Shown: positions 3,111 to 60,728 of the stretch, piece by piece
Layout of the letters: the number at the start of each line of letters is the position of its first letter
How positions within the stretch are numbered: the first letter of the stretch is position 1
DNA from: Conger conger
Taxonomy: Eukaryota
Length of the DNA stretch: 64,000 nucleotides
Direction: 5' to 3'
NCBI RefSeq assembly: GCF_963514075.1
Contig: NC_083761.1
Coordinates: 49,925,777-49,989,776 of the forward strand
Program-made: the position numbers and the translations under genes
The notes under the pieces: generated by a model
The model's input: the letters and a program-made list of their open reading frames with translations, nothing else
What the model was told of the DNA's origin: nothing
Database searches by the model: none

Positions 3111-6100
3111 GTGCAAAGGTTTTAGGCAGGTGTATTGTATATATTGAATATCAAATCAATATTTGGTGTGACCACCCTTTGCCTTCAAAACAGCATCAAT
3201 TCTTCTAGGTATACTTGCAGTTTTTAAAGGAACTTGGCAGGTAGGTTGTTCCAAACCTCTTGGAGAACTAGCCACAGTTCTTCTGTGGATTTAGGCAGCC
3301 TCAAATGCTTTGTGTAATCCCAGACAGACTCAATGACGTTGAGATCAGGGCTCTGTGGGGGCCATACCATCACTTCCAGGACTCCTTGTTCTTCTTTACG
3401 CTGAAGATAGTTCTCAATGACATTGGCTGTATGTTTGGGGTCGTTGTCCTGCTGCAGAATACATTTTGGGCCAATTAGATGCCTCCCTGATGGTATTGCA
3501 TGATGGTTAATATCTGCCTGTACTTCTCAGCATTGAGGAGACCATTCATTCTATTTGCAGAAATGCAGCCACAAACTTGCAAGGAACCTCCATCATGCCT
3601 CACTGTTGCCTGCAGACACTCAATCTTGTACCGCTCTCCAGCCCTTCGGCGAACAAACTGCTTTCTGCTACAGCCGAATATTTCACATTTTTCTGGACCT
3701 TTGTTTTCGTGCATAGTTGAGTCGCTTTGCCTTGTTTCCACGTCGGAAGTATGACTTTTTGGCTGCAATTCTTCCATGAAGACATTACATTAGATTACAT
3801 TATTGGCATTTGGCAGACGCTGTTATCCAGAGCGACGTACAACAAAGTGCATACCCATAACCAGGGATAAGTGTGCTGAAAGACCCTAGAGGGAAGTACA
3901 ATTTCAGTTGCTACCCGTACAACAAAGATAAGGACCAGGGCCTATCTTTTTTTTATTTTTATTTATTTATTTTTTTTGGGGGAGAGATTCTACAGTTCTG
4001 ACCTCAACGGGGAGTTTGTTCCATCACCGTGGAGCCAGAACAGACAGTAGTCGTGAGCGTGAGGTGGAGGCTCGTAGAGGGGGAGGTGCCAAGCGGCCTG
4101 TGGAGGCTGAACGAAGAGGTCTGGCAGGGGTGTAGGGTCTGATGATTGTTTGTAGGTAAGCTGGGGAAGACCCCTTAACAGCTTGGAAGGCTAGCACCAA
4201 TGTTTTGAATTTGATGCGAGCCATGACAGGCAGCCAGTCAAGGGAAGTAAATTGGGGTGACGTGTGAGTATTTGGGAAGGTTGAAGACCAGACGAGCTGC
4301 TGCATTCTGGCTAAGTTGGAAGGGTCTGATGGCGGACGCTGGGAGGCCAGCCAAGAGGGAATTGCAGTAGTCCAGGCGGGACAGAACCATCACTTGGACC
4401 AGGAGCTGGGTCGAGTAGGGGGTGAGAAAGGGGCGGATTCTCCGTATGTTGTATAGGAAGAACCTGCATGACCGGGTCACTGCCGCAATGTTCTCGGAAA
4501 GGGACAGTCTGCTGTCCATCACCACGCCGAGGTTCCTTGCACTGGGTGATGGCGTGAGTGTGGTATCCCCGAGGGAAATGAAGAGATCCAGATGGGGAGA
4601 GGTATTAGCAGGGATGAATATCATTTCAGTCTTACCTGGTTTGAGCTTTAGATGGTGGTTGTCCATCCAGCTCTGGATGTCACTCAGGCAAGCAGAGATA
4701 CGGGCAGACACCTGTGTATCAGATGGTAGGAATGAGATGAAGAGTTGGGTATCGTCCGCATAGCAGTGGTAGGATAGCCCATGTGCAGTGATCACAGGGC
4801 CAAGGGAACGAGTATAAAGAGAAAAAAGAAGCGGGCCTAGGACTGAGCCCCAGGGAACTCCTGTGGCAAGGGGCCGAGGTGTCGATACCGTACCAGCCCA
4901 GGCAACCTGGAAGGAGCGACCAGAGAGGTAGGACTCAATCCAGTCCAGGGCTGTGCCACAGATGCCCGTTGCTGACAGGGTGGACAGGAGGATGGAGTGA
5001 TCCACAGTGTCGAAGGCAGCAGAGAGAACTAGAAGAATGAGGACAGAGGAGAGGGAGGCTGCTCGTGCGGCATGGAGCGACTCACTGACGAAGAGGAGCG
5101 CGGTCTCTGTCGAGTGGCCCGATCTGAAGCAAGACTGATGGGGGTCTAGCAGGTTGTTGTTAGAAAAGAAAGAAGAAAGTTGAGTAGAGGCAGCTTGTTC
5201 TATGGTTTTAGAAAGAAAAGGAAGAAGAGATACCGGGCGGTAGTTCTGGATGATGGAGGGATCCAGAGTAGGCTTTTTTAGCAGCGGAGTGATGTGGGCC
5301 CTCTTGGAGGATGCTGGAAAACAGCCGGAAGACAGGGAGGAGTTGACAAGGGAGGTGACAAATGGGAGAATGTCAGGTGTGATAGTCTGGAGAAGAGAAG
5401 AGGGGATAGGGTCAAGGGCACAGGTTGTAGGGCGGTGGGAGAGGAGGAGTTGAGAAACATCTGAGTCTGTAAGGGGGGAGAAAGTGGAAAAGGAAGGGAT
5501 GGGCCTGGGGGGGGGGGGAAATGGCACAGTAAGGGAGGCGGTGGTTGTAAAGGATCTGCGGATGACTGTGACCTTCTCATCGAAAAAAATCAGCGAAGTC
5601 TTCAGTAGTGAAGGAGGACTGAGGCGGAGGAGGCGGTGCATTGAGGAGAGAGGAGAAAATGGAGAACAGTTTCCGGGGGTTAGAAGCGGAGTTCTGAATT
5701 TGCGTCTGATAGTATTTCGCTTTGGCGGCAGTGACAGCGGAAGAGAATACCGCCAGGAAAGACCACTTCTGATTAGACTTCTCCGCACAGTAGTTGGGTG
5801 TACCTGGGTCCCACTGGTTTCTGCCAATTCTGAGCTGATGGTACTGCTGGACATCTTCCGATTGCGAAGGGAAGTAAGCATGATGTGTCTTTCATCCAAG
5901 TTTCCTTGGCCAACCACTGGGTCTACGGTCCTCAACGTTGCCCATTTCTTTGTGCTTCTTCAACAGAGTTTGGACAGCACATCTGGAAACCCCTGTCTGC
6001 CTTGAAATTTCTGCCTGGGAGAGACCTTGCTGATGCAGCATAACTACCTTGAGTCTTGTTGCTGTGCTCAGTCTTGCCGCTGTGCTCAGTCTTGCCATGG

Positions 6101-7260: not shown

Positions 7261-7700
7261 TTTTGTTCTCTCCACACTTTCTTCTTTCCATCACTCTGGT
7301 ACATTAATCTTTGTCTCATGCGTCCACAAGACTTTTTTTAGGTGCTTTTTTTTTTTTTTTTGTTGCTAACTTTAATCTTGCCTTTCTGTTCAGGCTTATA
7401 AGTGATTTGCATCATGTAGTGTACCCTCTGTAGCCCTGCTGGTGTAGTCTTCTACTTATGGTAGACTTTGACACATCTGCTCCTACATCGAGGAGTGTTT
7501 TCTACACCATAGAGAGTATTCTCCGGTCACCCACTACAGTGGTTTTCCTCGGTCTACCGGGTCTCTTCACATAATTGAGTTCACCAGTTGTTATTTTCTT
7601 GTTGATAATGAACCAAACTGTTGACTAGGGCATGCCCATTTTTTTTGCAATATTTCTGATTGATTGATTTTCATTTCTGAGCCTCAACTCACTGCATCAA
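7261..7700. mobile_element. Tc1 family-B internal fragment.
   Basis: Homologous to 17990-18180 and 32270-32560 (e.g. ...gtagtcttct..atggt.gtctttgacacatct.c.cctacatc...). Confidence 0.5.
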
Positions 7701-10700
7701 CACTGCTGTCTTCTTCATGTTGTCATACCCCAACAATAATCTCCAAAGGCAATGGCAAAGTCAAGAATCAAGACTAGACATCAACAGCTCTCTTCTGCAT
7801 TCACTACAGACACAAATGAATACACCTGCCTAACGAAACATCTGTGAAGCCAATTCAACAATTACTTGTTCTACCTTAAGATGGTGTGGGGGGGAATGTA
7901 CAAAAGGTGCTGTCACCAAAATCACTAAAAATGTTACTGTTCAATTAATTATGCTGCTCACTGTAACTTCTCTAGAATGGTCCTAATTTTAATCTGATCC
8001 TTCACATATTCTAAACCTCAATACATAGAATAGCATAGAGGGTCAATAGAAAGTATGGTTAGTGGTATAAATGGTTATAGTTAGTTAACATTGTGATACT
8101 CTAAAAAGTGCTATTCTTATCCAGAATACTTCATTACTTCATTATATTGAATTGAGGGTTTTTCATACAAGTCAAAATACATTTCTTATTGCTTTTCAAT
8201 TCTTTCTTTATTAATGCAATTGTCAAATTCCCATACAAGTGGGAACACTCTGCTAATCAGCAAGCAATCACAAATTTATAGACTTCTTTGGGTCAACTGT
8301 AGCAAAACAAAAGACAAGGATCCAGTTAAAAATTTTCCTTGGAAAAATAAAATGAAACGAAACATTATTTTTCTTAGATTGCAATTATTGACTAAATAAC
8401 ATTTATAATCATTAAAAATGTATAACAATACATTTTAATTTAGCTTCACTGTGACATTTTCAGGCACACCAACAGACAATTAATTTTTCCTAGAGTGGTT
8501 AGTAAATTAACAGCTACACTCACTAATCAAAACAGATGTTAGATCCAGAGGGGAAAAGCAGACTTCAATTTTAAGCTGAAGTAACGCAGCCCTATCTGTG
8601 GCCACTCAACGTGCCTACAACTTAATTAATTTAAATGACCTGCATCCTAAATGAGATTTCATTGCTGTATATCCGATGCTGTGCACTGCGCAGATGTCAG
8701 CCTGGGAAGCTTGAGTCAGCCTGTTGTTTGTATCATGTCAGAACAGTCACCATAGAGCTCCCTTTAATGGCATCTCTCACTCACCCTCTTTTACAAAGTG
8801 CTGCCAGAAAAAATTAACTACCTGCCAAATACAGATACAATTCACAGACACCCTGATGGACATCCAGTTACATCCAACAACCAACAACCAAGGCATACTA
8901 TCCAATGTCAAAAAAGCAAGTAGCCATAATGAATAATGACAGTATTCTCTTACTGGTCCTCAATGATGTCATCACAGGAAGTTGCAATGATGTAACCCGC
9001 TGAGGAAGCCATAACTGCCTGAATGGAAGAGACCAATCTGAGAACAAAACACAAATGAAGGGCCTCAATAGGTTATATTGTCATAATAACATAACAGCTG
9101 CAATTCAGAACCATTTCTAAACATTGCTATAGAAGGCACTATAATTAATGTTACACATAGGAAGCACTTTTTAATGAAAATGATATAATTGATTTAATAG
9201 TCTTTTAAATGAAGAATACTCACATCACAGAATTCAACATTTGATTTAAAATAGAAAAATGTGACACTCAGCGGCAAAAAAGCTGTCTTACTCCCTCTTA
9301 CATTATTAAGCAACAGCTTAAGTCGAGCAGTCTGATCGAAGAAAAGGTTTAGTCATCTTAATACCTTTAACATATGTAAAACGCACAGCATTTCTGGTCA
9401 CAACCCATTTTGATAACCAGGTAAAACAAAATAATTCAGTTAATGTTTCAAAACCATTTCCTCCATTTTTACCTGGCAGAAACAATAACTGCATCCCCTT
9501 CGCTCCATCTTAGTCCTGGGATGCGTTTGAGACAACGTTTCGACAGCAGGAATAGTCCTGGGAAAAAGATGGATCCCGCGGCTAAAATACTCAACATGGT
9601 CCCAGAATTTGCTCGATAGACAAGTTGCTGTTCCCTCTGAAAACAGTGGCACTGTCTTTAAAAAAAACCTGAATTCAACTAAACTGCACTCAATTTAAAA
9701 AAATACCAGTTACAAAGATGTTTCCACAAGGTTAAAAAAAACATCTTATATCCTAGTATGCTCAGAAATGGGATCCTTATAGAGCAGGGACTTATTGAGG
9801 GATGAGGGCATTATATGGTAATAACCAGAACAACATGTAGGCCTAATTAATACAAATGTGTACTAATGAACAGGGAAAGTAATTTTCTGCATTTTATTTG
9901 TTTTATAAAACAGGACATAAAATATGATTCAAAAATTATTTTCTTTGGAGGGAATGGTCATTAATGTTTTATAATGGTTTAGCAAAGCAATAACAATTTT
10001 TTCTGCTTTCTTTCTTGAATATGCTGACTTCACAGGCCCTCCCACTCCACTATTGACCTGAAAATGAATCCCTATCAAAGCAAAGTGTTGATCAACCTAT
10101 AGAACAAGAAACAGAGAAAGGAGGGACAGAACAAAGAATGGAGGGAAAGAAAAAAATCAGTTAGACAAATATACTCAGGTTACTGTGCAAAGGTAATAGG
10201 CACCATAGATTTTTTCATATTAAATTGGTCTCAGATTTTTTTAAATTATCATTTTCTCAAATTAAATGCAATAGCAAAAACATTTCATTTTGGCGTAGTA
10301 ATATATTGAATACAGGAACAGACTGCTTTTCAGATATAATCTTGATTGCGGCTGTCAGGGATTGCCTGGACAGTGTACCTAAGAAAATTGATGCACAACA
10401 GAATCTTTGCTGCACAGAATGTTTGTACATCTTGTACATCAAATACATTAAACATGAGAAAGCTGAATAATTAAATAGAAATCCACTTTAAACTAACAAG
10501 ACTAACTAACAAGACAAGACCCAGGGTTTCTTTGCGTAACCTGGTTTCACAAAACCAAATAACCGGCTTAACCGGTACTACGAAAGAGGTTACCAACTTG
10601 CTAAGTGAAGACGGGACTTTTTAAGTAAAGAGCTGTGCGCGTACCCGTAAAAGTGGTGGTGTATGCAAAAATTAGCCTATAGCAGGGCAGCTTGGGGCGT

Positions 10701-11099
10701 AGGCTACTTGAGCGGCATTATTTCTCACCTGAGGAATAACTGATAGCCTGACGATAACCAGCCCCGGACCACTTTAGACGCGCAGCATACATTTCCCCGG
10801 AGATATAGCCAGATTGAAAGTAACTCATTTTCGTAGTACGGAAGCCCAGGGTTAGATCTGAAACTACCTCGCTAACCCCGTAATCTTGCTTCGTAGTCGG
10901 CTGATGTGGCAATGAGTAAAATTAATTCCAAGAACCCAGAAAAACAAGGAGAATGTCAAGTAGTTTAAATGAAAGAGCGAAGTTTCCCAGAACATTCAGA
11001 CAAAGGTAGGGAGAGAAAGGGAAACAAGAGAGAGGGGGGAGGGGAAATGTTAAACCAAAATAGATTTGGCACGGATTAGAGAGCAGGAGATTTAGAAAG

Positions 11100-11160
11100 A
11101 TTACAGGGAATGAGAGAGAGAGAGAAGAGAGAGAGATAGAGATAGAGAGAGAGAGAGATT
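11100..11160. repeat. (GA)n microsatellite.
   Basis: gagagagagagagaagagagagagatagagatagagagagagagag. Confidence 0.85.
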
Positions 11161-12872
11161 ACATGCATGGAGAAATTAACACAGAGAACAGAGAACAAGG
11201 ACCTGACGGAGAAAAGTACAAGAGACAAGCCGCAGAATAGTTTTGTTGTCCCAAGACAGACTGATTAAATCACTGGGCCTGTGCTGTGCTGCCTCCCGTC
11301 TGATAGTGATAAGTCATATTTATCATCCGACTAACAAAACAAGACACAATACGACGGACGTAAAGCCAACCGATGTAAAGCATTAAATAAAACATAGTAA
11401 TAGGCTACGGCACTACGCACAACCCAGGACGCATTTAAGAAACTATAACTGATCAATCAATTGGCCCTAAACAAGCCGCTCAGTAAGTAGCTCTGCCGGT
11501 GAAATGCGCAATGCGCTAACACCTCTAGATGAACAGTTTGTAGAACGGAATAACGGTGCGCCCTTCTAAGGCAATTAACGTAACGTTAGCCACTAGCTAA
11601 TATGAGGCAACAATAATAGCTACAGCTAGCAATAGATACGACATATTTAAGCAAATAAACTGGCAACTAATTGGCCAACAATAAATAATTGACTATAGTG
11701 GCAGTAAACTAGCCATCCACTAGTAACGTTAGAGCAGTAAGCAAGCAAAATGTCTGGGAATATATAGCTGGTTTACGTTGTCTTCCTGATGCAATTTGAA
11801 TTTGTGAACTAAAGGACGTTATACATGGTACTGATTTTGTTAGCTAGCCAGTTAATTATCTGGGGAAGTTGGGAAACTACCGTAACCAGTAAAATAATAT
11901 GTATAACGTTACTTATAATCTTACATTAACGATAGATAATCCATGCACACCATGGGTCAAAGCAATGCAACATGTAACTGTACTAACATGCCAACTAGAT
12001 GGCTGAACAGCAATCATAGCTAACCCAAGTGGTGAAATCAGGCCCCTTGTCCTATCAATAATAGCAGTGTGAAATTTGTCAGCAAAATGCCAGTTATACC
12101 TTTAAAAACACAGAAGCACAAAATGGGAGTGATGATGGGAGGATGTCGGGGAAGGTGGGTTGTCCACAGGGAAGAGGGGTTTACAAATGAGTCAGTTAGA
12201 AGGATAAATTTACGTCGGGGTCCCGTGGCGTCCGGTCAGCGGCCCGAAGAAACTTGTACCCCAGGGAAGGCGATTTGCAGGGTCCGGTCGGTATCCGCTA
12301 AGGCGGTCCGCATGGTTTTTGTTTCGTATATTCAATAGCTGGCTAGACAAAACGAAGAAAACCTATGAGGCAACCAAATATGCGAGTTTCCCTCTGCGCT
12401 ACCTTAACGTGCACACCGGTCTCTCGCCTTCTGAACCTAATCTTTTTCTTACACTAAGCTCGCAGATGCTTTCTGATGCAGGCTTTAGGTTCGATTTAAA
12501 TGGTAAGCGCTCACCTTTCTGTTGACTGTTCGCTGCAATCCGACTGCCTCCTATACCGTGTGCATGCTTGCTTGTGTGCGTGCTAGATAGCTAGTTAGCT
12601 AGCTAACGTCAGCTAGCTACAATTCCGCGTTATCGATTGGTGAGCTAGCTAGCTAGCCTACTGTTTGAGATTAGCTAGCTAGGCTATTCAAGAAAACTAG
12701 CCATGTTAGCAAACATTTAACCGATTAAATATTTGCTTTACGTAATCAATTCCGTTTTATTTTGTATATCATTTAAGAGAAACGTAAAACCTGTTTTGTG
12801 TGGGGGGAAATCGAATCATCTACCTCTGTGGCTAGCAAACGTGCCCTAGCTGCTTTTGCCTCCCCCTTTCTC

Positions 12873-12877
<5 letters not shown>

Positions 12878-12933
<56 letters not shown>
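12878..12933. repeat. (CT)n microsatellite.
   Basis: ctctctctctct... run. Confidence 0.9.
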
Positions 12934-12934
<1 letters not shown>

Positions 12935-13548
12935 ATTAATCTCTCTAAATCAGATGTTTTATAGGGATGAATTAATTCCTGTGGTGCTAATCCTTCCACG
13001 TATCACATCGTAATAAAAATAAAATTCAACGCCAAAGCAGCAGTCGACTATGTGATCAATTCAAAACGCAGATGTTTATGAATAGGAAATATTGGATTTC
13101 CCTTTCAGTCATTCATTGGGGAGGTGTCAGTTGTGACTTTTTCTCAGCATGTCTGCTTCCAAGCTATTAACGTTGGTATTTCCCCAATATCATCTATTAG
13201 GCGCATGTTGGTAAACCTTATAAATATCATTGATAATGATAATGATATTTCCATTGTGGGAATTCATTCTCTTTTTGCAAACAGTTGTGTTAATTAAATG
13301 CACAATTTGCAGAAAAATGCCTATAACAGCCAACCTCAAGGAGCAATTCAGAATTTAAACGCGAAATTGATTGTAAATATGCATTTAATTCCAATTATTA
13401 TTGATTAGCCTATTTGCAATGGCAATCCAATCTGAGAGATTTTTTTAAAATAAATTGTTACAAAACTAAATATTATAATTTTACTAATGTTAGAAAGGCA
13501 GACTTTGCCTGAAGAGAAACCTGAAGACAACCAAATATTCCTAAAACA

Positions 13549-16310
13549 CCAGGGGCCTCATTTATAAGCGTTGCGTAGGCACAAAAGAATGCGTACGCCA
13601 CTTTCTAAGCAAACTTTGGCATTTATAAAAAACGAACTTGACGGGAAAATGTGCGGTTCTCCACGGAAACTCTGACCCATGCGTACGCACGTTAACTGGA
13701 GAAATGAGAAACTGTGCCTTTAATGCTCGTGACGTAAGACCAGGAAAACGGGAAGTGAAACAGGATGTAAAAAGGTATAAAGATTTGCCGGGAGTTGTGG
13801 CTGGGTATGGCTGCTGTAAGGACGTGCGTCGTCCATGATATACTTATTAAAGTGTTGTATTGTTGAATCTCGCTATACGGGTTCTCTCCCTTCCTAAGTG
13901 CAACTCAACATTTGGCGACGAGAGAAGTCGAAAATGATATACGACAGATACCACTGTGTAAAATAAATCGAAATTGATTGTTGTTGATTGTACTCTTAAA
14001 GGGTTCTGATTTTCTGCATGTTTACCCTAGGACTCGGAACTATACTGTCCTCTCAGGTCCTCTTTGCACTTGTTTAATTTGCACTTCGTTGTACGTCGCT
14101 CTGGATAAGAGCGTCTGCTAAATGCCATGCAATGTAATGTAATGTAATGTAATGTAATGAAATATCACCTCTCACGTATCATATACGAAGAGTTAATTTG
14201 CAAAAACGTTTAAAAGCCTCTCTTACAACGAATAAACAAACAGCTGTTTGATTGATGCTCCCTGGAGTGCCCAAAAAATGATTTAGGATGATAAATATAA
14301 ACGGAGATGTTGTTGTAAAATAATCCCTCAAATATGTAGACGAATTGTTAAACAATACTTAATGTTATTAAATGTATTCTCATAAATAATATGGTGAACA
14401 GTCGGACAAATTGCGCTGCAAAGTGCAAATTTCGATTTATTTTACACAGTGGCATCTGTTGTATATCATTTTCGACTTCTCTCGTCGCCAAATGTTGTGT
14501 TGCACTTAGGAAGGGAGAGAACCCGTATAGCGAGATTCAACAACACAACACTTTAATAAGTATAACAGGGACGAAGCACGTCCTTACAGCAGCCATACCC
14601 AGCCACAACTCCCGGCAAATCTTTAAACCTTTTTACATCCTGTTTCACTTCCCGTTTTCCTGGTGTTACGTCACGAGCATTAAAGGCACAGTTTCTCATT
14701 TCTCCAGTTAATGTGCGTAGGCATGGGTCAGAGTTTCCGTGGAGGACCGCACATTTTCCCGTCAAGTTAGTTTTTTATAAATGCCAAAGTTTGCTTAGAA
14801 AGTGGCGTACGCATTCTTTTGTGCCTACGCAACGTTTATAAATGAGGCCCCAGGGGCCTCATTTATAAAACTGTGCTTAGGATTCACGTCAAAAGGTTGC
14901 GTAAGCATGAAACCTAGGACGTGCGTACGCAAAACAATATTCTTATTTATAAAACAGTGCATACGCACGTCCCACGCCAGTTTCCTTTATAAATCACAAT
15001 CAACTCTAAATGTGGTGCAACTTTGCCAGCTTCATGTCCCGCCCACAGTTGCCTATAAATAGGCAGTGAAACACCCCTAATGAATATGCATTTCACGAAG
15101 ACGACAATGGCAAACGCTGAAAAGAAGGCCAAGAAAGGGGATTTCAGCCATTTGATTGCCTCTGAAAAGCTACAGGTGTGGGAATTATCCTGATTGATTG
15201 TAAATGACGAACAGTTCTGCACAACGAATGTGATGACGATGATAATAATAATAATAATAATAGTAATACACGTTATTTGTCTAGCACCATTGAAAACACA
15301 GTTACAAAATTAAGAGATAAAACGAACAAAAATCCATAACAATAAGCACATTATAAAACATAATATATGAATATGATAACAATATATGAAACTATGCACT
15401 CGTATCTGCCCGACTGACGCATTGTAAACGGCATCAGTGCAGCGCAATTTGTCCGACTGTTCACCATATTATTTATGAGAATACATTTAATAACATGAAG
15501 TATTTTAACAATTCGTCTACATATTTGAGGGATTATTTTACAACAACATCTCCATTTATATTTATCATCCTAAATCATATTTTTTGGGCACTCCAGGGAG
15601 CATCAATCAAACAGCTGTTTGTTTATTCATTGTAAGAGAGGCTTTTATCCGTTTTTGCAAATTAACTCTTCACATATGATACGTGAGAAGTAATATTTCA
15701 TTACATTACATTACATTACATGGCATTTAGCAGACGCTCTTATCCAGAGCGACGTACAACAAAGTGCAAATTAAACACAAGAACAAGTGCAGAGGACCTG
15801 AGAGGACAGTATAGTTCTGAGTCCTAGTGTAAACATGCAGAAAATCAGAACCCTTTAAGAATACAATCAACAACAATCAATTTCGATTTATTTTACACAG
15901 TGGTATCTGTTGTGTATCATTTTCGACTTCTCTCGTCGCCAAATGTTGTGTTGCACTTAGGAAGGGAGAGAACCCGTATAGTGAGATTCAACAATACAAC
16001 ACTTTAATAAGTATAACAGGGACGAAGCACGTCCTTACAGCAGCCATACCCAGCCACAACTCCCGGCAAATCTTTATTATTATTACCTTTTTACATCCTG
16101 TTTCACTTCCCGTTTTCCTGGTCTTACGTCACGAGCATTAAAGGCACAGTTTCTCATTTCTACAGTTAATGTGCGTACGCATGGGTCAGAGTTTCCGTGG
16201 AGGACCGCACATTTTCCGGTCAAGTTAGTTTTTTATAAATGTCAAAGTTTGCTTAGAAAGTGGCGTACGCATTCTTTTGTGCCTACGCAACGTTTATAAA
16301 TGAGGCCCCA
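13549..16310. repeat. Composite palindromic repeat, possibly two adjacent non-autonomous DNA transposons. Unit U (13552-14420) reappears fully inverted at 15410-16310. The first ~440 bp of U are also inverted at 14420-14858. A SINE 3'-tail fragment is embedded in each copy. The remaining ~550 bp (14859-15410) is unique.
   Basis: Direct reading of the sequence shows that both halves begin aggggcctcatttataa and end ttataaatgaggcccc. They contain subterminal tttataaa and gcgtacgc motifs. ORFs 13638..13838(+) and 14553..14765(-) are the same repeat read in opposite orientations. Confidence 0.6.
15049..15175 (+). promoter_or_regulatory. TATA-box (ctataaatagg), followed about 50 bp later by ATG-initiated MANAEKKAKKGDFSHLIASEKLQ and a GT donor (CAG|gtgtgg), inside the unique part of the composite repeat.
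   Basis: TATA consensus at 15049-15060. The ATG at 15107 opens a 23-codon ORF ending at a donor-like site. No downstream exon could be identified. Confidence 0.2.
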
Positions 16311-16445
16311 GGTCTGTTGCAAGGTCTAGGATCATAAAGTAGGATGTCATCAATCATGAGGTCTGCCAGGCCAGTGGCTCCCAAACTCAGTCCCGGAATT
16401 TTTACAAGCAGTTCATTCGGCTTAATTTCGAGGGATTGTGTTAAC

Positions 16446-16796
16446 CACATTATGTCAGATATCGCTATGCATGCCATGAAGTATAACATTGTTCATATTG
16501 TGCTATATTGCTAACAATTACATTAATACATTTTTGACCAAATGAAAAAAACTGCAGTTAATCAGGTTTGGCTCTTTATCATTTTCTTTGTCTGGATTTG
16601 TTTCATTATCTTCCTGATGTTTAGTTTTAGTAGGCAAGTATCCACACTTTCACCAATTAGGAGCATATTGATTCAACTCAGGCTTTTTCTTTTTTTGACC
16701 ATTTAACAATTTACTTATTTTTATGCAGTTGTTTGCAATATAGCACAATATGAACTTATCCTACATGGCATGCATAGCTATATCTGACATAATGTG
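16446..16796. mobile_element. MITE-like element with ~35-bp terminal inverted repeats.
   Basis: cacattatgtcagatatcgctatgcatgccatg at the left end matches catggcatgcatagctatatctgacataatgtg at the right end. The inner portion also shows an inverted pair: ttgtgctatattgc / gcaatatagcacaa. Confidence 0.5.
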
Positions 16797-30867: not shown

Positions 30868-31099
30868 TAAGCTGTGGGGTGGCCTGTAGCGTAGTGGTTA
30901 AGGTAAATTACTGGGACACCCAAGGTTGGTGGTTCCAATCCCGGTGTAGCCACAATAAGATCCGCACAGCCGTTGGGCCCTTGAGCAAGGCCCTTAACCC
31001 TGCATTGCTCTAGGGGAGGATTGTCTCCTGCTTAGTCTAATCAACTGTATGTCGCTCTGGATAAGAGCGTCTGCCAAATGCCAATAATGTAATGTAATA
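30868..31099 (+). mobile_element. Complete tRNA-derived SINE with a LINE-shared 3' tail (HpaI/SmaI-like family).
   Basis: The tRNA-like head (ggcctgtagcgtagtggttaaggt ... ggttccaatcccgg) has A/B boxes. The tail is gtcgctctggataagagcgtctgccaaatgcc(aatgt)n. The same tail is found at 3781-3850 (the LINE), 14040-14160 and 15700-15760. Confidence 0.75.
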
Positions 31100-38974: not shown

Positions 38975-40875
38975 TACAATGGAGGAAATAAGTATTGAAC
39001 ACATCAACATTTTGTCCAGTAAATGTATTTCCAATGAGCCTATTCAAGTGAAATTTGCACCAGACTTTGGTATTCACTCAAAAAATCCAGACAAAAAAAT
39101 CGAAACATTGAAGTCCATATGTAAATAAAGTTATGTGTAATGAAGTGGAATGAAACAGGAAAAAAGTATTGAACACACTAAGAAAAACAGCAAGGAAAGG
39201 CAAGGAACCAGCTGAAAACCATAACTAATTAGGAGGCAACTCTACCTCCAATCTGTGCTAATTAATGTCAGCTGGGTTGGAATATCCATCCATCCATCCA
39301 TTATCTTAACCCGCTTATCCTGAACAGGGTCGCAGGGGGGCTGGAGCCTATCCCAGCATACATTGGGCGAAAGGCAGGAATACACCCTGGACAGGTCGCC
39401 AGTCCATCGCAGGGCACACACACCATTCACTCACACACTCATACCTATGGGCAATTTAGACTCTCCAATCAGTCTAACCTGCATGTCTTTGGACTGTGGG
39501 AGGAAACCGGAGTACCCGGAGGAAACCCACGCAGACACGGGGAGAACATGCAAACTCCGCCCGGGATTCAAACCCAGGACCTCCTTGCTGTGAGGTGGCA
39601 GTACTACCCACTGCACCATCCGTGCCGCCTTGGGTTAGAATATATTGATGAATTTTTTTTTTTTTGTCACCAAGGTGCCACACAAGAAACATCTAATGAT
39701 GGGTAAAAGTAAAGTGCTCTCTTGAGACCTTCGCAACCAGATTGTTGCAAAACATGAAAATGGAATTGGCTACAGACGTAATTTCACAACTTCTGAATCT
39801 TCCAGTAAGCACCATTGGGGGCATTATCCGTAAGTGGAAGCAACATCACTCCACCATCAACCGGCCACGCACAGGAGCTCCTCGCAAGATTTCTGATCAG
39901 GGAGTCAGAAGGATACTTAGAAGAGTAGCCAAAGAGCCAAGGACCACTCCAGAAAGACTTGGAGGCAGCAGGTACAACTGTGACAGAAAGGACAGTAGGC
40001 AATGCACTCCACCGCCATGGCCTCTGTGCACGCTCAGCCCGCAAGACTCCACTACTGAAAAAAAGACATGTTGAAGCTCGTTTAAAGTTTGCCAAACAAC
40101 ATCTGGACAAGCCAGTGAACTACTGGGAGCATGTACTCTGGTCAGATGAGACGAAAATTGAACTTTTTGGCGGTCACACAACACACCATGTTTGGAGGAC
40201 AAATGGCACTGCACATCACCCGAATAACACTATACCAACAGTGAAGTTTGGAGGTGGAAGTATCATAGCGCGGGGCTGTTTCTCTTCTCGTGGTACTGGC
40301 AGACTTCATATCATTGAAGGAACAAGGATGAGACGTGGGTGGACCTTCCAGCAGGACAACGATCCAAAGCATACAGCAAAGGAAACTCGCAATTGGTTTC
40401 AGAGAAAGAAAATCAACTTGTTGGAATGGCCCAGTCAATCACCTGACTTAAACCCAACTGAAAATTTTTGGAAGCATGTGAAGATCCAGATTCACAAGAG
40501 GGCCCCCTGCAATCTTAAAGATTTAAAGACAATCTGTGTAGAGGAATGGGCCAAAATCACACCTGAATACTGCGGGCGATTAGTTACTTCACACAGAAAG
40601 CGCATTGAAACTGTCATTACAAACAAAGGCTTCTCCATTGAGTATTGAATTAATTTCAGTTAGTGTGTTCAATACTTTTTTCCTATGTCATTCCACTTTA
40701 TTACACATAACTTTATTTACATATGGACTTTAATGTTTAGATTTTTTGTCTGGACTTCTTGAGTTAATTCCACAGTCTGGTGCAAATTTCACTTGAATGG
40801 CCTCATTGGAAATACATTTACTGGACAAAATGTTGATGTACATGTTGATGTTCAATACTTATTTCCCCCATTGTA
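38975..40875 (+). mobile_element. Tc1-like transposon with long (~200 bp) terminal inverted repeats and a near-complete but frameshifted transposase. It lies in CDIPT intron 5 and itself carries a SINE insertion.
   Basis: Left end tacaatggaggaaataagtattgaacac... matches right end ...gttcaatacttatttcccccattgta, inverted over ~200 bp. ORFs 39742..40074 and 39959..40648 encode a Tc1 transposase ([35 protein letters not shown]) containing a frameshift and a deletion. Confidence 0.8.
39284..39629 (-). mobile_element. tRNA-derived SINE of the widespread teleost family (sense begins GGCGGCACGGATGGTGCAGTGGG and ends with a (GGAT)n tail), inserted into the Tc1 element with a ~13-bp target-site duplication.
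   Basis: The reverse complement reads ggcggcacggatggtgcagtgggtagtactgccacctcacagcaaggaggtcctgggtt...tggatggatggatgg. The flanks gctgggttggaatat | ...| ttgggttagaatat form the TSD. Confidence 0.8.
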
Positions 40876-47168: not shown

Positions 47169-48038
47169 CTAAGAGTATGAGAGGTGTGAGCCGTTGGAAA
47201 TGTGAGAGGTGACCGAGGTACTCCGGCTCAGTCCCCCCTCCCCGCCTCCAGAACCCCCTGGCCCCCCACCGGAGGCAGTTCTCCTCAGGGGCTGGGGGCT
47301 GTTCCTCAGGGCCATCAAACTAGGGCCCCTCACTGCCAGGCCACCACCCCCGCTCCCACTGTAGCCCCCCTGAGAGGAGGAGGACGAGGAGGAGGAGGGC
47401 GGGGAAGAGGAGGAGAGAGAAATTGGGGGTGGGGGAGGCGGAGGTGGGAGGAGGGCCAGGGACTGAGATGAGGAGTGGGAGGGCAAGTGGTGGGAGTGGG
47501 CGTGGGAGTGGGACAAATGGCTCCCTCCTCCCCCCCATTCCCGCTCTCTCTCCCGCTCTCTCTCCCGCTCCCGGTAAAGGTGCGGGGTGCTCTGGTGGTG
47601 GTAGTGCTGTTGGAGGTAGTGGTGGTGGTGGTGGTGGGAGGATGAGGAGGAAGAGGAGGAGGAAGCCGAGGAGTGGGAGGAATGGACGCCCCCCTCCCGG
47701 CTGGAGACGGACTCGGCGCGGCCGAACCCGCTGCTCCCGCTGCAGCTGTTCTGGCTCCTCCAGGAGGGCGGCGCCCCCGAGTTCTGGGGGTGCACGCCGT
47801 GCGTCCAGTGGCTGCCGGAGCGAGGCACGGGGCGCGAGGGCCAGCCGCCTGACGCGGCGGGGGGGTTGGGGTAGCCCTGGTTAAAGGCCTCGGCGGGGAT
47901 GCCCGTCAGCGCCATGTTGCTGAAGCCCAGCCGCATGCTCTCCGAGTCGAAGGCCTCGATCTCGCGGGCCTGGCGCTCCAGCAGGGTCCGGATTCGCTCC
48001 GAGCGCTCGTTCTGGAGAGAGAGCATCTCCTCCTCTAT
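47169..48038 (-). CDS. TAOK2: TAOK2 terminal coding exon of the short (beta-type) isoform. It encodes [51 protein letters not shown]... then a long low-complexity tail (His6, Ser runs, (RE)6, Pro8, Gly runs) ending ...NGSHLSYS, with a stop at 47169.
   Basis: The start is near-identical to the human TAOK2 C-terminal region [40 protein letters not shown]. The end motif [12 protein letters not shown] matches human SHILNGSSHFYS. The acceptor is cctcag|ATA. ORF is 47169..48026. Confidence 0.8.
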
Positions 48039-48117
48039 CTGAGGAAGGGAGGGAGAGGTCAGTACAGAACACGAAACGCTGAAAATGTTGTGAAGCGCAC
48101 TCCGGCCCGCGCCTCAC

Positions 48118-48300
48118 CCTCTGCTCCAGCAGCGCCCGGCGGATGGACACCCTCTGCTCCAGGTCCTTGGCCTCGCGCTCGTGCTGAGAGTCGGTGTGGA
48201 TCTTGATCTTGCTCTGGTAGGCGTTCAGCAGCTCCAGCTCCTGCTGCAGCTGCATGCGCAGCACCTGGTACTCGGCCTCCTGAGACTCATCCAATCGCAG
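48118..48300 (-). CDS. TAOK2: TAOK2 exon encoding [61 protein letters not shown].
   Basis: Matches human [61 protein letters not shown]. The acceptor is cctcag|CTG and the donor is AGG|gtgagg. Length is 183 nt. Confidence 0.85.
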
Positions 48301-48486
48301 CTGAGGGAGAAGATGGGAGGGGCACATCCCTCAGCTGGTGGTGTGGTATCTGTGTAAAGTTTGGTTTCACATACACTATATCTGACCTTTCTCGGAATCT
48401 GAGCAGTCATGCTTACTATTCAGTATTGGTCAAACCCACCTCTTACTCTCTTTGTGATGTTTTATAAAACTAGTTCTTAATAGTAA

Positions 48487-49915
48487 CAATACTACAGTGC
48501 CCTCCATAATGTTTGGGACAAAGACCCATTTGTCTCGATTTGCCAACTTTAAGATTTTGAATAACACAATTATCACATGGTTAAAGTGCACATTCTTAGA
48601 TTTTATTGAAGGAAATTTTTATACGCTGTATAAATTACAGCGGTGTTTATACATAAATTTCTCAGGCGTGTTGAATTGCCTATTTAATGCACATACGAGA
48701 GCTCTTGGCACCTAGTCTTTCCACTCGTCTTTCGATCACCTTTGGAAACTATTATTGCCATTTTACATGAGGAGGGGTCACTCCGCTCTGCACCCTGGTT
48801 CACTCCTGAACTGAGGGTACAGAAATCTGCACGGCACATTCTGGAATGGCGGCTGCTGGGCTTCTAAATTTCAAACTGGCCGATAGAGCGCACCAAAGAG
48901 GTACGATCAACCTTCTTGTCATATGGTCCAGCCTCAGGCCCAGATAGCAAGCGACACCGGACCGGTTCTTGGACCTCGCTATCTGGGACTCCTGTTACCA
49001 TCGCTAACACTTTTTCTGCTGTCAGTTTTGGTTTCATCATTGTACTTCTGGCAAGATGACGGTCAGTTTGACAATTTGATCTTATCTTGTGTGCGCAAGA
49101 TAAAAAATATAACTTTTCGGGACTTTGGGGGCTCCGTAGATTTGTGTAGCAAACACAATAACAAAGATGATGTTTTCCATCCTCGGCTGGCCAGTATCAT
49201 GGGACGTACCAAAACATTCGCACCCATGGGTTATTCCCCCTCCCAATTGTGCTTGACATCGGTTGCATGAAATCTTGCCGATCTAAAAACGCTAAATGCA
49301 TTACAAATTGAAATCCCATTGTATTTAGCATATAGCTATGTATTTAAATCATGAAACATACACTTTGAACCCAGACTTCCAAGCGATGTAGTTTGCTTAA
49401 ATTTAGCTTTCAACGCTCTATTTAATAGGGAGCAGTATACAGGCGGTATCATTGAATGATACCGCCTGTATACTGCTCCCTATTAAATAGAGCGTTGAAA
49501 GCTAAATTTAAGCAAACTACATCGCTTGGAAGTCTGGGTTCAAAGTGTATGTTTCACAGAATAACTTTATCATAAAGAGAATTCATCATGTCATCAGCTG
49601 TGGAGGTCTCTGTCAGTCTCTTTGCGATGAGTAAGCTCACCAGTGCTCCCTTTCTTTTTTACAATGTTCCTAACAGTTAATTTTGGTAAGCCAAATGTCT
49701 GGCCGATGTCTAACCATTTTATTCTCGTTTCTCAGCCTCGTAATGCCCTCTCACTTTCATTGGCACAGTTTTGGTCCTCATGTTGATAAACAACAAAAAA
49801 AGTTTCCAAAGGTGATCAAAAGACATAGGAAAGACTAGGGGCTGAGAGCTCTCTTATACCTGCATAACAAAGTAATTACAAACATGTGTCCCAAAGATTA
49901 TGGTACCCTGAAATG
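48487..49915. mobile_element. Non-autonomous Tc1-like element (family D) with long inverted arms and a central perfect palindrome, in a TAOK2 intron.
   Basis: Left terminus tacagtgccctccataatgtttgggacaaagaccc and a diverged inverted copy ...gtgtcccaaagattatggtaccctg near 49885-49915. Internal inverted segments agtctttccactcgtctttcgatcacctttggaaac (48700-48730) match gtttccaaaggtgatc...ggaaagactagg (49800-49830). Confidence 0.5.
49352..49557. repeat. Near-perfect 206-bp palindrome with ~100-bp arms and a 4-nt centre.
   Basis: Arm tgaaacatacactttgaacccagacttccaagcgatgtagtttgcttaaatttagctttcaacgctctatttaatagggagcagtatacaggcggtatcatt is followed by its exact reverse complement from 49457 on. No mismatches were seen by eye. 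Confidence 0.8.
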
Positions 49916-51077
49916 TACAATACCACAGTAATTTCTAAATGATGAAACCAAAATGTATAAAACTATCCTTTAATAAAATCTGAGAATGTGCACTTTAACC
50001 CCATCCTAATTGTATGATTCATAACATAACATAAGGTAATGGCAAGAACAGGCCATTCAGCCCAGCAATGCTCACCTTTGCCTACCCCTAAGTGTACCTA
50101 CTGCCTAAATTGCCTAAAAGCTAAATAGAATCTAACACCGTATCAAGCCTGGTCTTGAAAACCCCCAGTGTTTCTGCCTCCATTACATGCACTGGCAAGC
50201 TATTCCACATATTGACTACTCGCTGTGTGAAAAAATACTTCCTAATATCTGTACGGAATTTCTCAATTTGAGTCCTCTCGTGCCAATTTCCATTTGGGTC
50301 CTCTCGTTCTGCTAACCGAACTCAACCTGAAGAAATCCCTATACTTCCCTTTGTTAATCCCTTTAATGATTTTTAAAGCCTCAATCAAATCCCCCCTAAG
50401 CCTCCTTTTACTTAGTTTACAGAGATTAAGCATCCTTCCATCCTTTTATACATGGAATGAATCTGGTTGCCCTTCTCTGAACCTTTTCTAATGCCACTAT
50501 GTCCTTCTTATAGTGTGATCCCCAGAACCGTACAGTGTGGTCTAACAAGAGTATTGTATTGTATAAGGTGAGTATAACTTCCTCAGATTTATAATCAATA
50601 CTCCTGGCTATGTATCTAGGTCATTTATGTAAATGAGGAAGAGCAATGGCCCCAGCACTGATCCCTCCCCTGGATAAGGCCCCCTCCTACTACTTTCTGT
50701 GTCCTTTCTCGTAGTCAATTCTGAACCCACTTAGAAATGGCTCCTACAATTCCTACCTTTCTCATTTTGATAATGAGCTTGTCATGTGGTACCTTATCGA
50801 ATGCTTTTTGGAAATCTAGGAATACACTATCATAAAACCAGCTATCATCAAAACACTTGATTGCTTCATCAAAGAATGCCAAAAGGTTTGTCAGGCATGA
50901 ACTACCCTTTAAATGTTATTGTTTTCAATAAATAATTCCAGTTTGTCCCTAATTATAGATTCCAGCAACTAGTGTTGCACCTATGAATGGCTAAACAGCA
51001 TCCTAAAAATGTGGCTGCCTCTGCAACTTAGTGGTTACTGAAGCTCTCCAGTTTCAGGAACAACCATGGGAATATTA

Positions 51078-51362
<285 letters not shown>

Positions 51363-54300: not shown

Positions 54301-54482
54301 ACGATAAGTATACTGGAAGCTAGACCAAACTAGCGCACTGCAGCTTATGATCTGGTCACAGCCTGCAAATCTACCAAGATATTACAGCAAAGTTATGGCC
54401 TGTGACAATAAAAGGCCCTGTTCACTTCACTATGAACAAAATGTGCTGAAATGAACAATCAATCCGGCAGATTCAAAAATCA

Positions 54483-55470
54483 ATTAGGCACACGCATACA
54501 GGGCGGTCCGTAAGTATTCGGACGGATTTCTGTTCTTTTGGCTCTGTACTACAGCTGTAGTACGGAGTACTACTACTATTGGGTTTGAAATGACAGAACA
54601 CTGTCACCATTAATTTGAGGGTATTTACCTCCATAACGTATGATCCGTGTCGGAACTACATCCCTTTGTACACATAGTCTGCCCATTTTCTCAGCTGTTT
54701 CTGATTGTATTCAATCACTTCCTTTGTGTAGGAATAATAAAGCTTTCAGTATCTATTCTTGATTCAGGGCTTTTGATTGCCTTTGGAGCCTGTTATTGGT
54801 GTCTATCAACAGGAGTACCAGAGTTGTGCCAATGTAAGTGAAGGAAGCCATTCTGAAAACTACAGTAAGAAACATAGGCCTAGTAATAGGCTTGCTGAAA
54901 CAAGCTATTTGGAATATCATTAAGAAGAGAGAGCACTGGTGCATGTTTGGGATCATTGCCTTGCTGTGGGATGAAGCACCATCCAATGAATTTGGAGAGA
55001 TTCAATTGGACAGAATTAAGAATTAATTCTGATGCAGCTATCAGCAGTTACATTATCAATGAGGACAAGTGAGCCAGCACATCTGTGGCAGCCAGACATG
55101 CCCAAACACCCAAACCACCATGTTTCACAGATGACAGGGGGTGCTTGGTTCTTGGGCAGTTCCTTTAACCCTCCACACTTTGCTCTTGGCATCACTCTGA
55201 TACAAGTCAACCATAGTCTACTCGGTCTACTTTTTTTCAGGACTCAGCAGACACAAAGGCAATCAAAGGACTAGAATGAAGGCTAGACACTGAAAGCTTT
55301 CTTATACCTGTGCTGTCCAATTACTTTTGGTCCCTTAAAATGGGCAAATCCTACACAGATCACCCAATAAAGGCATAAATACCCTCAGATTAATGGTGAC
55401 AGTCTGCACTCTAACCTCATATTCATTGAACAGAAATTGTACCACTGTCCAAATACTCACGGTCTGCACT
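54483..55470. mobile_element. Non-autonomous Tc1 family-B element (~1 kb) in a TAOK2 intron.
   Basis: Termini tacagggcggtccgtaagtattcggacgg ... tgtccaaatactcacggtctgcactgtata. Its interior is homologous to 753-1933 (e.g. catcattgccttgctgtggga(a/t)ga(t/a)gcaccatccaatga). Confidence 0.7.
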
Positions 55471-59720: not shown

Positions 59721-59960
59721 TTTGAGGCTCTTGGGCTGCTGGCGCACCTCCACGGCGTGCTTCTGGCGCAGCTCCTGCTCGCGCCGCTTGTTGTACTCCA
59801 GCTGGTTGGTGAGCTCGGTCTGGTGCTGCGTGCGGATCAGGTCGGCCCGCGTGCGCTGCACCGAGGCCAGCTGCCGGAACTCTAGCTCCTGCGTGGATTC
59901 GTGGTGCCGCAGCAGCATGGCGCACTCCAGGTCCTTCTGCGTCTGCTTCTTATTCAGGTC
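59721..59960 (-). CDS. TAOK2: TAOK2 exon encoding [80 protein letters not shown]. Its donor is used by the short beta-type isoform.
   Basis: Matches human [80 protein letters not shown]. The acceptor is ccccag|GAC and the donor is CTCAAA|gtgagtgag. Length is 240 nt. Confidence 0.85.
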
Positions 59961-60423: not shown

Positions 60424-60516
60424 GTAACCGCAGTGGGAGACAGACAGGCACGCAGGCAGGCATGCAGGCAGGCAGGCAGGCACGCAGGCAGGCAGGCAGG
60501 CAGGCAGGCAGGCACG

Positions 60517-60548
<32 letters not shown>

Positions 60549-60705: not shown

Positions 60706-60728
60706 GCAGAGCCGGGCCGCAGCGGTAC

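Follow-up and report, generated by a model that had tools for sequence, protein, structure and literature searches.

A region of about 2.8 kb within the 64-kb stretch of DNA analysed here (the window) is occupied by long inverted repeats and carries a TATA box, an ATG and a GT dinucleotide near its middle. This arrangement raises the question of whether the region is one palindromic element that carries a promoter. The first-pass annotation had described nested inverted copies of one unit around a unique centre of 550 bp, possibly a foldback-type transposon or a mobile first-exon cassette. We find that the region very probably consists of two defective, non-autonomous PIF/Harbinger copies of one family, inserted head to tail at a single preferred target. 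The locus is ordinary transposon biology of a known kind, and it does not challenge current knowledge.

Two adjoining sets of termini

Comparison of the window with itself gave an inverted repeat of 427 nt with 96% identity (13549-13975 against 14428-14854) and a chain of inverted matches with 94-99% identity linking 13543-14420 to 15438-16318. These long matches and the four termini lie about where the first-pass annotation had drawn its inverted repeats. The terminus GGGGCCTCATTTATAA occurs exactly four times in the window, compared with an expectation of 0.03, starting at 13552 and 14853 on the plus strand and at 14836 and 16294 on the minus strand. The terminal inverted repeat (TIR), GGGCCTCATTTATAA(A), is 15-16 bp long and present at all four termini; it begins with GGG and is within the NuwaI length range. 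Two motifs are iterated near the ends. The motif GCGTACGC is found six times in the window (0.07 expected), each time inside the composite, and eight of the 11 window occurrences of TTTATAAA fall in the composite, which covers 4.3% of the window. The iterated copies of both motifs are restricted to the element ends, and the earlier description of a non-autonomous TIR DNA transposon with iterated subterminal motifs holds. Tandem Repeats Finder at a score of 80 or more reported no array in 13553-16308, where the only iterated stretch is a short (TGTAA)n tail.

The order of the termini does not correspond to nested inverted copies of one unit. Two complete elements, A (13553-14850) and B (14854-16308), adjoin each other in the layout CAG-A-CAG-B-CAG. 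Both have a pair of ends of their own and are flanked by CAG, and a single CAG separates them.

The target site

The trinucleotide CAG stands at 13550-13552, 14851-14853 and 16309-16311. We read the three copies as target-site duplications (TSDs) from the sequence and, for the first, also from the CWG found in relatives; the second is common to both elements (...GAGGCCC CAG GGGCCTC...). The host flanks continue the target on both sides. AAACAC at 13544-13549 matches the left half of the zebrafish Harbinger3_DR target, which has been described as the palindromic 15-bp sequence AAACACCWGGTCTTT (PMC3016246), and GTCTGT at 16312-16317 stands where the consensus has GTCTTT. The reconstructed empty site AAACACCAGGTCTGT (AAACAC-CAG-GTCTGT) is identical to that target at 14 of 15 positions. 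Matches with at most two mismatches are expected 0.47 times per 64-kb window, and none is found elsewhere in the window.

The window alone leaves the TSD length ambiguous, as a 1-bp (A) or a 5-bp (CCAGG) duplication fits it too. The 3-bp assignment rests on relatives and on the literature, both of which favour CWG. Beside the TIR, 37 of 40 ends of relatives have CWG (CAG in 22, CTG in 15), with the final G preset by the search pattern at 33 loci. The half-site logo of these 40 ends reads AAA[G/C]ACCWG. In three complete relatives the flanking trinucleotides are unequal, CAG/CTG in L034 and L015 and CAG/ATG in L036. Excised elements might carry their old 3-nt flank to a new site, comparable to piggyBac.

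For the side-by-side placement, the simplest account would be that one element inserted first and the other then targeted the CAG at its flank. Owing to the initial G of the TIR, each insertion would restore a CCWGG core. With this order of events, the locus would be a clean natural example of how extreme target selectivity of the Harbinger3_DR kind leads to tandem insertions with one common TSD.

Relatives and assignment to the NuwaI group

The terminus was found in 33 independent contigs of metagenome collections, evidently fish DNA, and in chromosomes of Conger, Leuciscus and Salvelinus. Bacterial and archaeal genomes gave zero matches, as expected. A literature search with the terminus sequence found no paper, and one for GCGTACGCA returned unrelated papers only. 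That an eel, a cyprinid and a salmonid share one 15-bp TIR indicates a widespread family. The repeats of the window are 94-98% identical to Conger conger copies, which points to Conger or a near relative as the source of the DNA; a search with the long exon of TAOK2 gave best matches of only about 60% identity. The most informative of these, L034 (9747-12994), is 3,248 bp long and has both TIRs, a Myb_DNA-bind_5 ORF (PF13873, E = 6e-19) and ORF pieces with DDE_Tnp_4 (PF13359, E = 1.3e-17 and 5.7e-21).

The NuwaI group has been described as having a CWG TSD, TIRs of 12-61 bp that usually begin with GGG, and DDE_Tnp_4 and Myb ORFs (PMC4482050). It is found mostly in bony fish, and HARBINGER3_DR is entered in it as NuwaI-2_DRer (Han et al. 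2015, PMC4482050). By their TSD, their TIR and the protein domains of the relative, A and B are non-autonomous members of this CWG-targeting group of PIF/Harbinger. They share with NuwaI, a part of PHIS (PIF/Harbinger-ISL2EU-Spy), the CWG TSD, the GGG of the TIR, the domains encoded by the 3.2-kb intact relative and the bony-fish host. No anguilliform family is among the entries covered of the NuwaI table (PMC4482050). Of the hAT/PIF-like affinity proposed earlier, the PIF part is borne out by the CWG duplication and the DDE_Tnp_4 relative, and the hAT part is not, the locus being without an 8-bp TSD.

Element B and the remnant of a Myb-like gene

Element B (14854-16308, plus strand; 1,455 bp) is what an internal deletion has left of an autonomous element, with a canonical left and right end. 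Two blocks align to L034, 14850-15145 with 9743-10039 (94.6% identity) and 15145-16139 with 11991-12959 (94%). The element is collinear with L034 except for one deletion, in which 1,951 bp (L034 10040-11990) are absent. The left end (14854-15052, plus strand) contains the TIR at 14854-14868 and subterminal TTTATAAA and GCGTA(C/A/G)GC motifs, and the left ends of at least 30 relatives align with it. The right part (15146-16308, plus strand) comprises the transposase-upstream region and the right end, in which the copy U3 spans 15430-16308, GCGTACGC lies at 16173 and 16263, and the TIR at 16294-16308. This layout is canonical, because the complete small relatives L012 (2347-3673) and L015 (308-1375) each have one left-type and one right-type end. 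The limit of the supposedly unique 550 bp at 15410 does not correspond to any real boundary of B.

The deletion breakpoints can be placed exactly. The junction at 15145-15148 reads TTTC|AGC|CATTTG and joins positions 10039 and 11991 of L034; in context (15137-15158) it is GGGGATTTC-AGC-CATTTGATTG. The parent was an autonomous element of about 3.25 kb, and the lost segment reaches from Myb-like codon 13 to where the convergent transposase gene starts. B has retained both ends, the Myb TATA box and ATG, and the transposase-upstream region. The putative first ATG of the transposase-side ORF lies at 15149-15151 on the minus strand and corresponds to L034 11997-11995. The true start could be a downstream Met, and the Conger ORF piece bearing this ATG had no match in a Pfam search.

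The TATA box, the ATG and the GT noted in the first-pass annotation are present as sequence, and their meaning changes with the comparison to L034. The TATA-like box CTATAAATAGG (15053-15063, plus strand) belongs to the Myb-like gene of the element, in a region with 94.6% identity to L034. In L028 and L014, homologous ATAAAT(A/G)G boxes are located about 55-90 bp 5' of the Myb ORF ATG. The ATG at 15107 reads MANAEKKAKKGDFSHLIASEKLQ and has a good Kozak context (A at -3, G at +4). It opens a remnant of the Myb_DNA-bind_5 ORF (15107-15145, plus strand) of 13 codons, MANAEKKAKKGDF, which aligns with MPNSEKKARKRNF of Conger and MANTERKSKKRNF of L028. The parent ORFs match PF13873 with the above E-value for Conger and E = 2.6e-14 for L028. 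The window peptide MNMHFTKTTMANAEKKAKKGDF aligns to the Conger peptide MNMHFTKTTMPNSEKKARKRNF; it is too short to match Pfam. A protein search with four composite ORFs joined as the query gave no matches at E <= 1. Beyond the remnant, the reading frame continues in antisense transposase-upstream sequence as far as a stop codon at 15191-15193. Since B is the autonomous element minus an internal segment that begins after Myb codon 13, these alignments identify the TATA box and ATG as the original start of the Myb-like gene that the transposon itself carries.

The GT that had been taken as a splice donor (15176-15177, plus strand) corresponds in L034 to sequence upstream and antisense of the transposase start, outside the Myb gene. 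The intron of the Conger Myb gene sits much further downstream, after ...APDDS. The GT is probably fortuitous as a donor. The proposed first-exon cassette thus dissolves into the family's own Myb-like ORF, cut after 13 codons, and a GT in antisense transposase-upstream sequence. Neither element has an intact protein gene, and the window keeps the 13 Myb codons only.

Element A and the right-end copies

Element A (13553-14850, plus strand; 1,298 bp) is non-autonomous and built of right-end sequence only: one right end is inverted and followed, after 7 bp of filler, by a second one that is truncated. All its matches to L034 are in the right end, with 13722-14420 matching the reverse complement of 12287-12959 and 14428-14681 matching 12722-12959. 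The left arm and loop, U1 (13553-14420, minus strand), are the family right end reversed, with the TIR at 13553-13567 and GCGTACGC at 13591 and 13681. The right arm, U2 (14428-14850, plus strand), is a truncated, TIR-terminated right end of 423 bp, 96.7% identical to U1 and 97.6% to U3. In a four-way alignment the filler AAAGTGC occupies 14421-14427, where the two right-end copies meet, and the A-specific junction (14414-14434) reads ...GCGCTGC AAAGTGC AATTTCGATT.... The element is predicted to fold as a hairpin with a stem of about 423 bp. The arms that had suggested a foldback-type transposon are the unique right-end sequence of a conventional two-gene Harbinger element.

Among the few relatives compared, no other element ended in two right ends, so that A may have been built once in place rather than represent a mobile subfamily. 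Its double right end would have arisen most plausibly by template switching or abortive gap repair.

The three right-end copies have pairwise identities of 96.7, 96.7 and 97.6% and are 96.0-98.2% identical to the Conger copy, so that they are not nearer to each other than to it. They have 9, 5 and 5 unique substitutions. Divergence among the copies was considered as a means of ordering the events and proved uninformative, the pattern being star-like. Such a pattern fits two insertions and equally a rearrangement in situ during insertion, and it cannot separate them.

The UnaL2-type tail

The first-pass annotation had also reported a SINE 3' tail in each unit. The tail is there in both places. 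In U1, a 5'-truncated UnaL2-type LINE/SINE 3' end with a (TGTAA)n tail lies at 13983-14160 on the plus strand, its extent set by the match to a free copy at L034 19256-19426. It matches Rfam RF00436 at 14078-14131 with 60.6 bits, and the (TGTAA)n at 14131-14160 follows directly. In the right part of B, an UnaL2-type 3' fragment lies at 15695-15871 on the minus strand and matches RF00436 at 15717-15770 with 63.9 bits. Both matches span model positions 1-54 (the full 54 nt) and exceed the gathering score of 55. Separate capture by each unit does not stand. Judged by its position, the tail is inherited from the parent element, because the Conger parent-type copy already has the UnaL2 feature at the equivalent place (L034 12560-12613).

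Alternative explanations

The main competitor to two insertions, less probable by our estimate but worth serious consideration, is a single B-type insertion followed by in-situ aberrant transposition or gap repair, in which template switching to the sister chromatid built A from the right end of B. The near-equidistance of the three right-end copies is what one event would produce, no other A-type copy is present among the relatives compared, and a filler such as that at 14421-14427 is typical of repair junctions. However, A has perfect termini and a CAG at each end, as an independent insertion would. U3 also shares more with a Conger copy from a different chromosome (97.9% identity along the full length) than with U1 (96.1%), and alignment column 505 groups U1 and U2 against U3 and the outgroup. 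In addition, the strong target preference already predicts an insertion at the regenerated CCWGG beside an element. An improbable variant has A and B moving together as a macro-transposon by their outermost termini at 13553 and 16308, which would make the composite of the first-pass annotation a true mobile unit. These ends do form a proper TIR pair with CAG on each side and the 14/15 target match, but the inner junction of right end, CAG and left end would still need an earlier tandem insertion as an extra step, and no second composite copy was found in the data searched.

The remaining explanations depart from two PIF/Harbinger insertions in kind. A functional mobile promoter or first-exon cassette, with a transcript from the TATA box and ATG spliced from 15176 to host exons, would be favoured by the Kozak context and by the 94.6% identity of the Myb promoter region to an apparently coding copy. 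We consider it very unlikely, as the ORF is a 13-codon remnant that ends in antisense sequence and the intact element does not use the GT as a donor. A non-autonomous hAT or Foldback-family transposon is suggested by the CAGGGG..., which resembles hAT termini, and by the long inverted arms. Yet no duplication is seen in the 8 bp outside CAG...CAG (TAAAACAC and GTCTGTTG), the proteins of the intact relative are a DDE_Tnp_4 and a Myb-like one and do not include a hAT transposase, and the arms are without the subrepeat arrays of FB elements, which together make this affiliation close to untenable. We give equally little credence to explanations without transposition, whether a segmental inversion or duplication at the locus or an error of assembly. 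Palindromes are a known failure mode of assembly, but many independent contigs and three other fish genomes have these termini and both types of end, with the same CWG flank, and copies that differ by 2-4% plus indels are not collapsed duplicates. The recurrence of the termini in 33 contigs and three fish genera likewise speaks against the local duplication that the first-pass annotation had named as its own counter-hypothesis. Annotators should mask these 2.8 kb as a pair of non-autonomous PIF/Harbinger copies of the CWG/NuwaI type; an entry as promoter, exon or novel element class would be misplaced.

Comparison with known transposons

The zebrafish elements Harbinger3_DR (NuwaI-2_DRer) and Harbinger3N_DR resemble A and B in the CWG TSD and in the near-identical 15-bp palindromic target (14/15). 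Harbinger3_DR has two genes, DDE_Tnp_4 and Myb_DNA-bind_5, as does the intact Conger relative. It likewise has short TIRs and iterated subterminal motifs, and non-autonomous deletion derivatives that need both proteins in trans. It is nevertheless a different family, compared with A and B by description. The TIR is 15-16 bp here and is given as 12 bp for NuwaI-2_DRer (PMC4482050), the nearest full-length copy here is from Conger conger, and the right end here holds an old UnaL2-type fragment. The Myb-like protein of Harbinger3_DR has been described as recognising a 9-bp motif repeated subterminally (Sinzelle et al. 2008, via PMC3016246, PMC9710019 and PMC4482050). By analogy, the Myb-like protein of the present family would presumably recognise the subterminal motifs, among them GCGTACGC and TTTATAAA, and recruit the transposase. 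A and B would move only with the DDE_Tnp_4 transposase and its Myb-like partner supplied in trans from an intact copy. Tourist-like MITEs such as mPing are likewise deletion or end-only derivatives, mobilised in trans by a transposase and the Myb-like ORF1 (PMC2836001). They differ from the CWG-targeting A and B of 1.3-1.5 kb in their TTA/TAA targets and in a length that is usually below 600 bp.

Element A also calls to mind inverted-duplication derivatives in maize. Double-Ds and Mu killer are such derivatives of DNA transposons, and A is likewise an inverted duplication of one parent end that includes the transposase-upstream region and forms a long hairpin. In B, the Myb promoter reads antisense into the transposase-upstream region, and the two ATGs face each other about 45 bp apart. 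With this geometry the locus, if transcribed, could conceivably serve as a natural trigger that silences the transposon family it belongs to, although we regard this as a long shot. The product would then be hairpin or double-stranded RNA against the transposase 5' region, and by such RNA Mu killer silences MuDR in maize.

Two complete elements at one target site

In the window, an inverted repeat pair was recovered by the repeat finder at 13549-13975 / 14428-14854 (427 nt, 96%), and a match chain links 13543-14420 and 15438-16318 at 94-99%. The 16-mer GGGGCCTCATTTATAA occurs at exactly four sites in the 64-kb window (13552+, 14836-, 14853+, and 16294-), against 0.03 from shuffles. The composite region, 4.3% of the window, holds all six window sites of GCGTACGC (0.07 expected) and eight of the 11 sites of TTTATAAA. 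The repeat structure described in the first-pass annotation is therefore real. Its nested palindrome is not, because the termini run in the order + - + - and bound two complete elements side by side. The single-base reading is AAACAC CAG GGGCCTCATTTATAA ... TTATAAATGAGGCCC CAG GGGCCTCATTTATAA ... TTATAAATGAGGCCC CAG GTCTGT. Element A (13553-14850) and element B (14854-16308) each have CAG on both sides, and the middle CAG is common to both.

Taking out both elements along with two CAGs rebuilds an empty site, AAACACCAGGTCTGT, which matches the palindromic target of zebrafish Harbinger3_DR (PMC3016246) at 14 of 15 positions. Target sites with two or fewer mismatches are expected 0.47 times per whole window, and no further one is present elsewhere in it. 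The inverted repeat of the repeat finder overran the termini by a few bases because the target is palindromic. Since CCAGG is nearly palindromic, a target-site duplication (TSD) of 1, 3, or 5 bp is compatible with the window alone; evidence from relatives and published families fixes it as CWG (3 bp).

As described by Han et al. (2015; PMC4482050), NuwaI is a group in the PIF/Harbinger (PHIS) superfamily with a 5'-CWG-3' TSD and terminal inverted repeats (TIRs) of 12-61 bp, usually starting with GGG. Its proteins are a DDE_Tnp_4 transposase and a Myb/SANT protein, mostly Myb_DNA-bind_5, its hosts are bony fish in 12 of 16 species, and HARBINGER3_DR is listed there as NuwaI-2_DRer (PMC4482050). 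Every testable defining feature of this group was found, and A and B are assigned to it. The defining features of hAT and Foldback elements, both proposed earlier, are absent. Elements of this kind are familiar, as are deletion derivatives, end-only derivatives with long TIRs, and tandem insertions into a specific target; the family may be uncatalogued for the source species.

Copies outside the window

According to the first-pass annotation, termini not repeated elsewhere would mean a local rearrangement. They are repeated, in 33 contigs, evidently of fish DNA, that matched the terminus with the first subterminal motif in a scan of metagenome contigs, and in copies from Conger conger, Leuciscus waleckii, and Salvelinus alpinus. 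The same combination had zero matches in the bacterial and archaeal genome collection. The 33 contigs are filed as metagenomes (MDSQ01, MDSP01, Ga0308020, Ga0213918, and JACCDS01). Forty ends from these loci and the window give the flank consensus AAA[G/C]ACC-W-G, in which the final G was preset by the search pattern at 33 loci and the remaining positions were free. Position -3 is C in 39 of 40, -2 is A or T in 38, and -4 is C in 33; the flanking trinucleotide is CAG at 22 ends and CTG at 15.

Two contigs carry complete small relatives (L012 2347-3673 and L015 308-1375) that pair the left-type end of B with the right-type end, so the layout of B is canonical. The same TIR bounds a 2.6-kb Leuciscus waleckii copy (L035 5661-8288, flanks CAG/CAG) and a 1.8-kb Salvelinus alpinus copy (L036 5748-7555). 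The 15-bp TIR GGGCCTCATTTATAA is thus identical around Harbinger copies of an eel, a cyprinid, and a salmonid, and the interiors of copies sharing it are only 71-86% identical or unrelated. Flanking trinucleotides are identical in the window, L012 2347-3673, and L035. They are not identical in three complete relatives, reading CAG...CTG at L015 and at the Conger locus L034 (9744-9746 / 12995-12997), and CAG...ATG at L036 (5745-5747 / 7556-7558). Point mutation, recombination between copies, or a central W that is not simply duplicated could account for this. At L012 5519-6237, a 0.7-kb element shares the TIR, but its interior is unrelated and its flanks (CAGC / CAA) are degenerate; it may be a different MITE family with the same transposase.

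The coding relative and the derivation of A and B

Next to the left end, contigs L028 and L014 have an ATAAAT(A/G)G box and then an ORF starting MANTERKSKKRNFT or MAEAMRKTKKRNFT, with Pfam matches to Myb_DNA-bind_5 (E = 2.6e-14 and 2.6e-4, respectively). The matches of the L028 ORF in a protein search included a Conger conger protein at locus L034. There, a 3,248-bp element (9747-12994) with an identical TIR at either end carries a plus-strand Myb_DNA-bind_5 ORF starting MNMHFTKTTMPNSEKKARKRNF (E = 6e-19) and minus-strand pieces of a DDE_Tnp_4 ORF (E = 1.3e-17 and 5.7e-21). The window counterpart of the Myb ORF start reads MNMHFTKTTMANAEKKAKKGDF. The L034 copy is without ~130 bp of right subterminal sequence (L034 12959/12955 versus window 16140-16268), including two GCGTACGC motifs, which all three window right-end copies retain. 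Introns or frameshifts divide the transposase of this autonomous-like copy into three ORFs, and the copy may itself be inactive.

Window 14850-15145 aligns with L034 9743-10039 (94.6%) and 15145-16139 with 11991-12959 (94%; terminal 40 bp, 97.5%). From this collinearity, B is the autonomous element with 1,951 bp (L034 10040-11990) deleted. On the left, the break directly follows codon 13 in the Myb ORF. On the right, it lies two bases off the first ATG of the ORF on the transposase side, and the complement of that ATG, CAT, is kept at 15149-15151. The supposedly unique 550 bp comprise a left end of 292 bp and the initial 265 bp of a stretch that continues uninterrupted into the "inverted U", and the boundary at 15410 marks only the end of the right-end copy in A. 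The TATA-like box (15053), ATG (15107, MANAEKKAKKGDFSHLIASEKLQ), and GT (15176) of the first-pass annotation are all present. Because B is collinear with L034 and its breakpoint falls inside the Myb ORF, the box and ATG are, as judged from sequence, native to the element and the start of its own Myb gene. The GT most probably resembles a splice donor only by chance: it sits in antisense transposase-upstream sequence, outside the Myb gene sequence of L034, and the Conger gene has its real intron at a much more downstream position. The frame past the junction reads this antisense sequence to a stop at 15191-15193. An HLIAS(D/E)K segment common to L015 and B is consistent with right-side sequence. 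In B, both 5' regions of the parent have come to abut in convergent orientation, with the Myb ATG (15107, plus) facing the transposase-side ATG (15151-15149, minus) ~45 bp away.

Element A consists of right-end sequence only: an 868-bp inverted right end joined through 7 bp of filler (AAAGTGC) to a right end of 423 bp. Window 13722-14420 aligns with the reverse complement of L034 12287-12959, and 14428-14681 with L034 12722-12959. As RNA, A is predicted to fold into a hairpin of ~423 bp (minimum free energy -870 kcal/mol). Such structures are the expected product of template switching in gap repair, and A may have originated in this way.

The SINE tail of the first-pass annotation corresponds to Rfam UnaL2 LINE 3' elements, above the gathering score, at 14078-14131(+) and 15717-15770(-), each followed by (TGTAA)n. 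The tail was not captured separately by each unit but inherited from the parent element, because the Conger copy has it at the corresponding place (L034 12560-12613), where it aligns base for base.

History and proposed mechanism

The three right-end copies, U1 (13553-14420) and U2 (14428-14850) in A and U3 (15430-16308) in B, differ by 14, 14, and 10 substitutions over the shared 423 bp, with 9, 5, and 5 unique changes; one site unites both arms of A against U3 and the outgroup. U3 shares 97.9% identity with the Conger copy but 96.1% with U1, so the window copies resemble a copy on another chromosome at least as closely as they resemble each other. This pattern fits independent insertion of two family members. 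It is also compatible with an in-situ event at insertion, but an origin of A in situ seems less likely. Because G is the first base of the TIR, every insertion restores CCWGG on both sides, and a second insertion into the CAG flanking a resident copy is expected of a target-specific family. Movement of A and B together as one composite is very improbable. We somewhat favor a second insertion into the flanking CAG, with A and B coming from independent family members.

By analogy with the established picture for Harbinger3_DR and Ping/mPing (PMC9710019, PMC2836001), the Myb-like protein would bind the subterminal motifs and recruit the DDE transposase to the element ends. The element would then be excised and pasted into the CWG of the 15-bp palindrome, and the 3-bp stagger filled in. 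A and B would be passengers, because their ends are present and the genes absent.

Other features of the window

The presence of TAOK2 exons, a Tc1-like transposase, and a LINE reverse transcriptase marks the window as teleost DNA. Its repeats, 94-98% identical to those of Conger conger, suggest Conger or a close relative as the source. Immediately to the right of the composite, an inverted-repeat pair spanning ~350 bp (16446-16526 / 16720-16796; arms of 41 and 36 nt, 93% and 89%) may be an unrelated MITE. Further repeats, at 31034-31087, 3778-3851, 4238-5935, 39959-40648, and 39284-39476, are a third UnaL2 3' element, a partial one, the LINE reverse-transcriptase ORF (565 aa, minus strand), the Tc1-like transposase ORF, and a 193-bp repeat with 96% identity to L034 5734-5926. 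The exons of TAOK2 (TAO kinase 2) lie at 47169-63563 on the minus strand, with a long terminal exon (58044-59918, 624 aa) whose best database matches are only ~60% identical. Tandem repeats of CAGGCAGG (18 copies) and of 27/58 bp lie at 60441-60699, within a GC-rich stretch.
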